Shown in pieces: positions 3,426-6,835 of a stretch of 64,000 nucleotides of DNA. Position 1 is the stretch's first letter; every line of letters begins with the position of its first letter. The notes beneath the pieces were generated by a model, which saw only the letters and a list, made by a program, of their open reading frames with translations, searched no databases and had not been told where the DNA came from. Origin of the DNA: Escherichia coli (GTDB lineage Bacteria; Pseudomonadota; Gammaproteobacteria; Enterobacterales; Enterobacteriaceae). Location of the stretch: the NCBI RefSeq assembly GCF_016026235.1, contig NZ_CP065613.1. One strand, given 5' to 3'. The translations under genes and the position numbers were made by a program.

Positions 3426-6400
3426 TCAACGAATACTGATGCCGGAAGCCGCTTTTTTGGTCACAATCACCGTACAGTCGGTGATATTGCCTGCCCCCTG
3501 ATTGCCTTTCTGGAAAATCTTAAACTCCAGAGTGACGCTACCACCACTAGGCATATCAATAACTGCACTGTAACTACCGGGAATGGCCCCTTTAGTTTCT
3601 CTGGATGCGATTAATACGCCGTTTTTGCGAACTTCAAAACCATAACCCGTGTATCGCGTGCCTCCTAGGTTATTTCCGCTCCCCGGATCGTCATACGCTA
3701 TACCGTTAAAAATAATGGGCGGAATAATAATCTGGCGGTCAAAGTTATGATCATCGCTGATGGTGACTGTAACCGTACCGTTTGGTGTTTCCGTGTTACC
3801 CCACGTACCGACTTTTTTCGGGAAGGCTTTTGATACAGCTTTAACGAAATCCCCTCTGACCTGGGTCGCCTCCAGCATGCCCTTAATCGTACAGTTCTGG
3901 TTAATCGTGACATTGTTGAGCGTTCCTGAGTTCGCATTCACACTACCACTGATATCCGCATTTTTAGCGGTCAGCTTTCCGTCTGATGTCAGGGAAAATA
4001 CCGGAGGACTGCCACCGCTGGTAATGGTGGGGCTGTCAGGCGCTTCAGGAACACGTCGTTCATGAATATCTGGTTGCCCTGCGCCACAAACATCGGCGTT
4101 TCATTCCCGTTTGCCGGGTCAATAAACGCGATACGGTTAGCGGCAACCAGAAACTGGCTCAGCTTGCCTTCCTCCGTGTCCTCCATGCTGAGGCCAATAC
4201 CCGCGACATAATGTTTGCCGTCTTTGGTCTGCTCAATTTTGACGCCCCACATGGCATTCCATTTATCGTTAGCGTCCTTCCACTCTTTCGAAAACTCATC
4301 CAGTCTGCTGGCGTTATCCTCCGTCAGATCAACTTTTTCCAGCAGCTCTTTACCGAGATGGGATTCGGTTATCTTGCCTTTGAAAAAATCCAGGTAACCT
4401 TCCGCATCATCGCTCGCCCGACCGACGGCCTCCACGAATGCCGATTTGCCAACGGTGTTCACACTGCGGATATAAAAGTAATAATCATGGCCCGGTTTGA
4501 TATTGATACTGGCGGCTATCCAGTACAGCCCCGTGCCAAGGTAGCGGGCTGTGGTTTCAACCTGCCTGATATCGGTAATCCGCGTTTCCGAGAACCAGAA
4601 CTCAAACTGTACCGTCGGATCATAAACCGCAAGATGCGGCGTGGCAGTTATCTGAAAATAGCCCGGCGTCAGCTCAATCCGCGACGGCGCTGCCGGGGCG
4701 GCAATCCGGAACGATACCGACGCCGGATCGCCCTGCTGTCCCCGGGCATTTACCGCCCGGACCGTCAGCGTGTAACGCCCCAGCGCCAGCTGCCTGAAGC
4801 GGTAAGTGGTTTCCGTCGTCCGGGCCGTGCTGACCAGCCGCTCACTGCCGTCATCGGCGGCCACGGTCAGGCGAAGCATAAAGCTCACACCCTTCACTAC
4901 CTTCGGCGTGTCCCAGCGCGCCAGCACCTGATACTCCCCACTGTCTGCGGTGACTTCTGCGGTCAGGTGCTGCACCGCTGGCGGCGTGACACCATTCACC
5001 GTGCCGCTCTGGTCGCCGTCAAAGTGCGCTCCGTTATCCACGATGGCCTCTTTTTCCGGCACATGCTGCACGGCAGTGATGGCATACGTGCCGTCGTCGT
5101 TCTCACGGATACTCACACAGCGGAACAGGCGCTGGCGCAGCGTCGGCAGCTTCAGCCCCCACACGCTGTATCCGGCAACGCCGTCAGGAACACGGCTCAC
5201 TTTCACCTTCACGCCGTCGGTGACGGACTGAACCTCCACGCTGACCGGATTGCCACTTCCGTCAACCAGGCTTATCAGCGTGGTACCGGAGGATGGCAGC
5301 GTGATTTCACGGTCGAGCGTCAGCGTCCGGGGCTGGCTGTTCACCGCCAGCACACGCCCGCCGGTGCTGATCCCCGCATAGTCATCATCACAGATTTCAA
5401 TGACATCGCCCGGTACATGGCGAAGCCCTTCTGCGCCCACGCTGAAGTCCACGGTCTGCGTCTCCAGCAGCTCCGTTTTAATCAGCCACAGCCCGGCGCG
5501 GTGTGCCTGCCCCCGGCTGGTACAGCCAAAGGCATCCATCTTCGTGACGTTACGACCGTAACGGACAATGGCCTGCGTATCCTCCACAAGCTCTGTCGCC
5601 GTCTCCCAGCCGTTATTCGGGTCAATCCAGTTCACCTCAACGGCATTATGACGGTCCTTCAGGGCGCTGAAGCTGTAGCGGAACGGCGCGCCATCATCCG
5701 GCATCACCACATTACTGCGGTTATAGGTCCACACCTTATCCGATGGCCGGTCCTGCACGAACGTCAGCGTCTGCCCGTTCCATACCGGCATACAGCGCAT
5801 CGCCGAGCAGAAATCACTGAGCACATCCCACGCCTTGCGCTGCGTGGTCAGGTACGCATTACAGGTGATACGCGGTTCCGTGCCACCAAAGCCATCCGGC
5901 ACCGACTGGTCGCAATTCTGGCCGATGACATACAGCGCCCATTTATCCACATCCGCCGCACCAAGACGTTTCCCCATGCCGTAGCGCGGATGGGTCAGCA
6001 TATCCCACAGACACCAGGCCATGTTGTTGCTGTATGCCGGTTGTAACGTTCCGTCCCAGATACCGCTGTATTGTCGCGTCTGCGGGTTATAGTTCGACGG
6101 CACCTGCAGAATGCGCCCGCGAAGATGATAATTACGGCTCACCTGCTGGCTGCCGAACTGCTCCGAATCCACCTGTACGCCGACCAGTGCCGTGTTCGGG
6201 TAGCACTGTTTCACATCGATGATTTCGGTGTATGACGACCAGAGCGTTTTGTTCTGCAGCTGGTCTGTGGTGCTGTCTGGCGTCATCCTGCGCATCCGGA
6301 TATTGAACGGGCGCGGCGGCAGGTTACCCACCACCACCGAGGCCAGATACTGTGAGGTGGTTTTGCCTTTAATGGTGATGTCTTTTTCCGTCACCCAGCC

Positions 6401-6835
6401 ACCGTTACGTTGTATCTGAACCAGCAGGCGGACTTCCGACGGATTCCTGTCCCCCTTTGAGGTGGTTTCCACCAGTGCCTGCACGCCGAAGGTAAAACGC
6501 AGTCGGTCAATGTTTGCCGACGTGATGGTCCGGGTGATCGGCGTGTCGTATTTCACTTCCGTACCCAGCACCGCCTCGGAGCCGGAGGATTCAAATCCCT
6601 CCGGCGGTGTCTGCTCCTGCTCACCGGCCCGGAACACCACCGTGACGCCGGAGATGTTGGTATTCCCCTCAGTGTCCAGCACTGGCGTACTGTTCAGCAG
6701 CACGCTTTTTAATCCATCCACCGGACCTTCAACCGGCCCTTCGCTGATGGCATCGATCACACTCAGCAACTGCGTGGACTTCAGGTTGTCCTTCGCTTCG
6801 CGCGGAGTATGCCCCTTACTGCTGCCTTTACCCAT
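3426..6835 (-). CDS. J: Tail tip host-specificity protein J, split by an apparent -1 frameshift at a C4 run (about 4029-4032)
   Basis: The 948-aa ORF 3989..6835 matches lambda J from [24 protein letters not shown] through [21 protein letters not shown]; the J C-terminal domain continues in another frame (ORF 3426..3941, [12 protein letters not shown]...). Confidence 0.9.

Follow-up and report, generated by a model that had tools for sequence, protein, structure and literature searches.

Gene J and its frameshift

The window analysed here, a 64,000-nt stretch of an Escherichia coli genome (assembly GCF_016026235.1, contig NZ_CP065613.1), carries part of a lambda-like prophage in which gene J, encoding the tail tip attachment or host-specificity protein, lies on the minus strand at 3426..6835 and is split by a one-base frameshift; the gene becomes one reading frame after repair with a single C, and its relatives are intact. 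The two minus-strand open reading frames (ORFs) listed in the initial annotation, 3989..6835 and 3426..3941, are both present. The 5′ ORF (3989..6835) encodes 948 aa, comprising J residues 1–936, of which Pro936 is the last authentic residue, and 12 out-of-frame residues that end at a stop codon. The frame changes at a run of four cytosines (C4; 4029..4032, minus strand), where intact relatives have five (C5); read along the minus strand, the junction is CTGACAGCCCCACCATTACC, with the C4 run at 4032–4029. The 3′ part (3426..4028, minus strand) encodes J residues 937–1136 in the other frame, that is, the lower central fibre and a receptor-binding domain of the phage 434 type. This downstream frame is open from 4070 to 3426, and the 171-aa ORF at 3426..3941 is only the portion of it that follows the first GTG. 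The initial annotation had counted 933 residues before the shift and the last ~170 residues in the other frame; its description of a lambda-like N-terminal part followed by a change of frame stands, but both lengths need correction, to 936 authentic residues with a 12-residue out-of-frame extension and to 200 residues (937–1136), respectively.

The contraction was located by aligning the 3′ 905 nt of J to its best E. coli match, from strain H9Ecoli, in which the intact gpJ is 1137 aa long (WP_000515698.1). Three differences were found within these 905 nt: the C missing from C5; a GGT unit lost in frame from a (GGT)n repeat at 3540..3545 (minus strand), which changes PSGGGS to PSGGS in the receptor-binding domain; and a private C-to-T substitution at 3667 (minus strand), which changes Pro1057 to Leu in a loop of the same domain. 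Over the full 3.4 kb, the window J differs from the intact H9Ecoli gene by four substitutions, the 1-nt loss, and the 3-nt loss, corresponding to 99.8% nucleotide identity. C5 is found at the matching position in both H9Ecoli gpJ and lambda J, and once one C is inserted in silico, the gene reads as one 1136-aa ORF free of internal stops, which bears out the one-base homopolymer frameshift originally proposed at 4029–4032. The split is a deterministic feature of the sequence, not a statistical one. Phage 434 J retains the glycine that the window J has lost, and the best phage relatives of the receptor-binding end are 98.7% identical, which allows about two differences in 156 positions; the glycine loss and Pro1057Leu can therefore not both be present in them.

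Family membership was supported for both pieces of the gene by the NCBIfam profile NF049904 (lambda_TipJ), to which the 948-aa piece aligned at profile positions 1–963 of 1163 with 2005 bits (cut-off 1950) and the 171-aa piece at positions 992–1163 (E 5e-55). Members of this family are expected to have an uninterrupted frame of ~1130–1140 codons; here the frame is split after codon 936 by the 1-nt loss, and J as assembled is thus a pseudogene of the lambda_TipJ family. Its genomic position is that of J in lambda and 434, between I and lom/side tail fibre, with an intact lom (Ail/Lom outer membrane protein; 2757..3356, minus strand) directly downstream.

A 611-aa plus-strand ORF at 4211..6046 lies antisense to J. 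It was rejected as a gene, as stop-free antisense stretches of 673–705 aa are also present opposite the J genes of lambda, H9Ecoli, and O121, and it is read as a by-product of J codon composition.

The receptor-binding end

The repaired window J and lambda J (NP_040600; structures 8iyk, 8xcj, and 8xck) are 93–99% identical in each 100-residue window up to residue ~900, a span that takes in the hub, fibronectin type III (FNIII) domains, helical shaft, and upper fibre; identity is 86% at residues 901–1000 and ~30% thereafter, with two loop insertions. Divergence from lambda begins at approximately residue 985, and only ~30% of the last ~150 residues are identical, although the Ig-like fold of the lambda receptor-binding domain is homologous by sequence to this part of the window J (E about 1e-50). 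Among solved structures, the end also matches two lambda J receptor-binding chains (8iyk and 8xcj) and a chain deposited as ‘A8 gpJ’, 9wca. The C-terminal domain is accordingly homologous to, and clearly diverged from, that of lambda, as had been proposed.

To place this end among known phages, its last 156 residues were searched by tblastn against 50,697 phage records. In total, 74 records matched at ≥90% identity, and a further 169, carrying other types of J end, at <60%. Phage 434 was 96.2% identical and lambda h434 imm21 95.5%, and the best matches, at 98.7%, were mEp332, ev243, several phages derived from ECOR strains, and several long-tailed Stx2 phages. Compared along its full length, the repaired J (1136 aa) shares 1108 of 1137 residues (97.4%) with the J of phage 434 (1137 aa; OL657226.1, CPT_434_21; also present in lambda h434 hybrids), and only six differences follow residue 900, two of which are the private changes of the window. 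Relative to 434, the window J lacks one C (which shifts the frame after residue 936) as well as one glycine codon, and it shows Pro1057Leu. The gene order I–J–lom–side tail fibre is the same in both; however, 434 is a viable phage, whereas the window J resides in a non-inducible remnant.

When lambda J is replaced by 434 J, LamB gives way to OmpC as the receptor, as in 434 itself and in lambda h434 hybrids (PMC11101478; PMC3509688; for OmpC as the 434 receptor, see also PMC12502783). By its similarity to 434 J, an intact window J would specify a 434-type receptor-binding domain with the porin OmpC as its expected receptor, in contrast to the LamB-binding end of lambda. The alignment to lambdoid J ends, which assigned the domain to the 434 type and not to a copy of lambda's, thus agrees with the initial suggestion of a different receptor. 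This type of end is not new: it has already been characterised and is common, a place covering ≥80% of the 905-nt query being present in 1,224 of the 5,426 complete E. coli genomes.

The prophage around J

The prophage part of the window was compared with the related prophages of H9Ecoli and O121 RM8352, and the adjoining chromosome with E. coli HSP425. The H9Ecoli prophage is an example of those that occupy this chromosomal site in E. coli and have an intact gpJ, and its tail genes around J match those of the window at 99.1% identity across 17 kb; it keeps C5, an uninterrupted J, and its portal, terminase, and lysis genes, whereas the window copy has lost those genes. Several tail and head genes of the window copy carry lesions of their own. 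The side tail fibre gene (114..2735, minus strand) is ended early by a nonsense change of CAG to TAG at 114–116, leaving …VLSQE before the stop and DGIKSHTHS beyond it; H9Ecoli and O121 RM8352 have CAG (Gln) and read on for ~150 more codons. The major tail tube gene V (13000..13744, minus strand) is broken by an 85-nt frameshifting deletion, with its junction near 13311 and ACGGA microhomology, and by a 27-nt in-frame deletion at 13133 between 10-nt direct repeats TCACCGTGGC. The prohead protease/major capsid fusion gene (15346..17073, minus strand) is truncated at its 5′ end by the insertion sequence (IS) IS600, such that its NCBIfam match starts only at profile position 75 of 652; homology to the relatives ends at 17060, and IS600 starts at 17058.

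Everything upstream of the capsid gene is replaced by this IS600 copy (17058..18321, minus strand), and a copy of ISEc60 (IS4 family; 18906..20198, plus strand) replaces the integrase and cuts rspB, removing its 3′ third and leaving the first 208 codons. Between 17 kb and rspB, the window contains no portal, terminase, lysis, early (regulation and replication) region, or integrase genes. The window copy does not have the full set of modules (head, tail, lysis, replication, immunity, and integration) of an inducible lambdoid prophage; it is a dead, heavily decayed remnant that cannot form virions. In this respect, it resembles the cryptic remnants of K-12 and Shigella (of the Qin, Rac, and DLP12 type), which are leftovers of tail and late genes, cut short by IS elements and without an integrase, in which nonsense, frameshift, and deletion lesions build up. 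The prophage adjoins rspA/ynfE, and its relatives carry these tail genes together with pinQ/ydfK, a position that we take to be the Qin prophage site of K-12. Qin of K-12 presumably lacks a nearly complete tail module, unlike the window remnant.

Three further features of these prophages were observed. An inverted fragment of a prophage exonuclease/excisionase region occupies 18320–18905, between IS600 and ISEc60. At the L/M gene boundary, a short patch (8842–8898) is strongly divergent from both compared prophages and is probably a mosaic recombination joint. The H9Ecoli prophage has a frameshifted tape measure gene of its own (21232–24296 in H9Ecoli coordinates): at the place corresponding to window position 11602, it departs by 1 nt from the sequence shared by the window and O121. 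Evidently, frameshifts of one base are common among the tail genes of such prophages.

Mutation or sequencing error

A contraction of one base in a homopolymer could reflect either decay of the gene or an error in its sequence. We consider it likely that J was inactivated by the genuine loss of one C through slippage in a dead lambda-like prophage. The change from C5 to C4 would be a mutation of the replication-slippage type, and its loss would have been tolerated in the absence of selection, since J was already freed from selection in a prophage wrecked by IS, deletion, and nonsense lesions. Under this reading, the missing C would be absent from the DNA itself, not merely from the assembly. 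The mutation, if real, is very recent, because only four substitutions separate the gene from its intact counterpart.

The alternative is that the missing C is a homopolymer error of sequencing or assembly and that the genome truly has C5 and an intact 1136-aa J, which we regard as unlikely, though clearly less so than the functional explanations considered below. Several observations weigh in its favour and against a genuine mutation. The assembled sequence is the sole source of the C4 call; homopolymer contraction is a classic error of several sequencing chemistries, and the lesion is exactly such a single-base contraction. Two more, both A6 to A5 relative to both compared prophages, are present in the same prophage at 2705 and 12995; these lie between genes, after lom and after G/T, each in a …AAAAAAGCCC… motif that is probably a terminator stem. 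Apart from its few differences, J is nearly identical (99.8%) to the intact gene.

The C4 allele was also private among the matches and collections searched, with no independent assembly to confirm it. A 92-nt C4 probe matched 2,772 of the 5,426 complete E. coli genomes, and the best 30 matches were all 98.9% identical over a 93-nt span, equivalent to a single gap, so that no full-length exact C4 match was present among the 30 listed; one record fell in the ≥99% identity band but ranked below these 30. A search for a C4-specific DNA pattern found nothing among GTDB species representatives, in JGI metagenomes, or in IMG/VR, against five viral contigs for the C5 control pattern, and the exact 948-aa and 171-aa products were not found in the gene-position index or in a collection of 15 billion proteins. 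In O121, the C run is interrupted by a substitution. A search with the frameshifted tail recovered one JGI protein (P0001), a lambda-type J shifted at the same site but with its N-terminus also out of frame; it suggests that this run is error-prone in noisy assemblies, and it shows that the run is fragile without confirming the C4 allele of the window. The absence of the allele can be set beside that of other lesions: neither the V-deletion junctions nor the capsid/IS600 junction was found in the complete RefSeq E. coli genomes (5,426), and GTDB representatives likewise lacked the V-deletion junction, which implies that the source lineage is not represented in the genomes searched.

The quality of the adjoining chromosome argues against read error as the cause. 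Approximately 43 kb of chromosome is 98.5–98.9% identical to HSP425 and contains only three single-base gaps, one at the end of IS600 (18323) and two between mapped genes (24838 and 63083), and none of the 40 mapped flanking coding sequences is frameshifted. Among homopolymer runs of ≥5, one of 198 in the chromosome (lying between genes) and three of 68 in the prophage differed in length from those of relatives; at the chromosomal rate, ~0.3 erroneous runs would be expected among the 68. The excess in the prophage is the pattern of relaxed selection rather than of uniform read error, although the Fisher test for it is borderline (p = 0.053) and to that extent weakens the case for mutation. Moreover, the same gene has lost a 3-nt repeat unit, and the slippage-type lesions of 3, 27, and 85 nt in the prophage are outside any homopolymer error model, as are the nonsense substitution and the IS insertions; thus, real decay is demonstrably under way in the prophage. 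Because the prophage is already heavily decayed, the J lesion has no functional consequence beyond that of the other lesions, and if C4 were a sequencing error, J would be intact, yet particle formation by the prophage would remain impossible.

Predicted effect on the J product and functional explanations of the split

The domain order of lambda J runs from the hub domains through FNIII-1, FNIII-2, a shaft of alpha-helical structure (including residues 841–861), and a beta-prism central fibre to the receptor-binding domain (PMC11101478). Translation of the window gene would yield J residues 1–936, 12 wrong residues, and a stop that, judged from this domain order and from the onset of divergence at ~985, would fall inside the beta-prism. 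The shortened protein would be expected to keep everything from the hub domains through the two FNIII domains and the alpha-helical shaft to the upper end of the beta-prism fibre and to lack the lower fibre and the entire receptor-binding domain. By analogy with lambda J, such a product would probably leave a virion unable to attach to a cell.

A split that is itself functional, by recoding at the C run, by a phase-variable switch, or by production of separate hub and receptor-binding proteins, appears highly improbable. In its favour, the downstream frame is still fully open and has suffered no more than a single amino-acid substitution and the loss of one codon, and reading of CCA followed by re-pairing on CCC would formally allow a −1 slip. 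However, the site, ACAGCCCCACCATT, has a run of just 4 bases and contains no X XXY YYZ slippery heptamer; programmed frameshifting was rejected on this and on the lack of conservation. A phase-variable switch was likewise rejected, given a tract shorter than ~7 bases and the same one-base gap in each of the matches listed. Known phase-variable tracts are far longer than a run of 4–5 bases. As for two separate proteins, no Shine-Dalgarno sequence was seen by eye before the GTG at 3941, and the break, placed on the lambda J domain order, would fall inside the trimeric beta-prism fibre and not at a domain boundary. The shifted form is also not conserved, all of the relatives listed being unshifted, and virions are impossible in any case, since portal and terminase are missing, the capsid gene is truncated, and V is broken. 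We give equally little credence to the related idea that the 200-codon 3′ part has been kept because low-level slippage still yields full-length or split J; were it true, J might be of use to the host, for instance as part of a tail tip or tailocin-like structure that binds OmpC, with its specificity perhaps readjusted by the glycine loss and Pro1057Leu.

Annotation and genomic context

With inactivation by genuine loss of a C as the preferred explanation, the window J is a young frameshift pseudogene of the lambda/434 type in an IS-truncated remnant, an ordinary case with nothing new in kind. It is a further instance of a prophage remnant undergoing deletion-biased decay, here in an E. coli/Shigella-clade genome rich in IS elements. 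For annotation, 3426–6835 should be treated as a single J pseudogene and not as two genes, and its receptor-binding end as the common phage-434/OmpC type, not to be flagged as new.

The wider window offers some indication of the source. Enteroinvasive E. coli CFSAN029787 has copies of ISEc60, on its chromosome as well as on its large plasmid, that are 100% identical to the one in the window. In the chromosomal part, uidB (glucuronide transporter; 59617–60990, minus strand) has a nonsense codon at Trp7 and is the only broken gene of the 40 mapped. Together, IS600, ISEc60, and the nonsense codon in uidB hint at a genome of Shigella or enteroinvasive E. coli type. The chromosome also differs from HSP425 by an indel of ~180 nt at 58279–58307, between ydgA and uidC.

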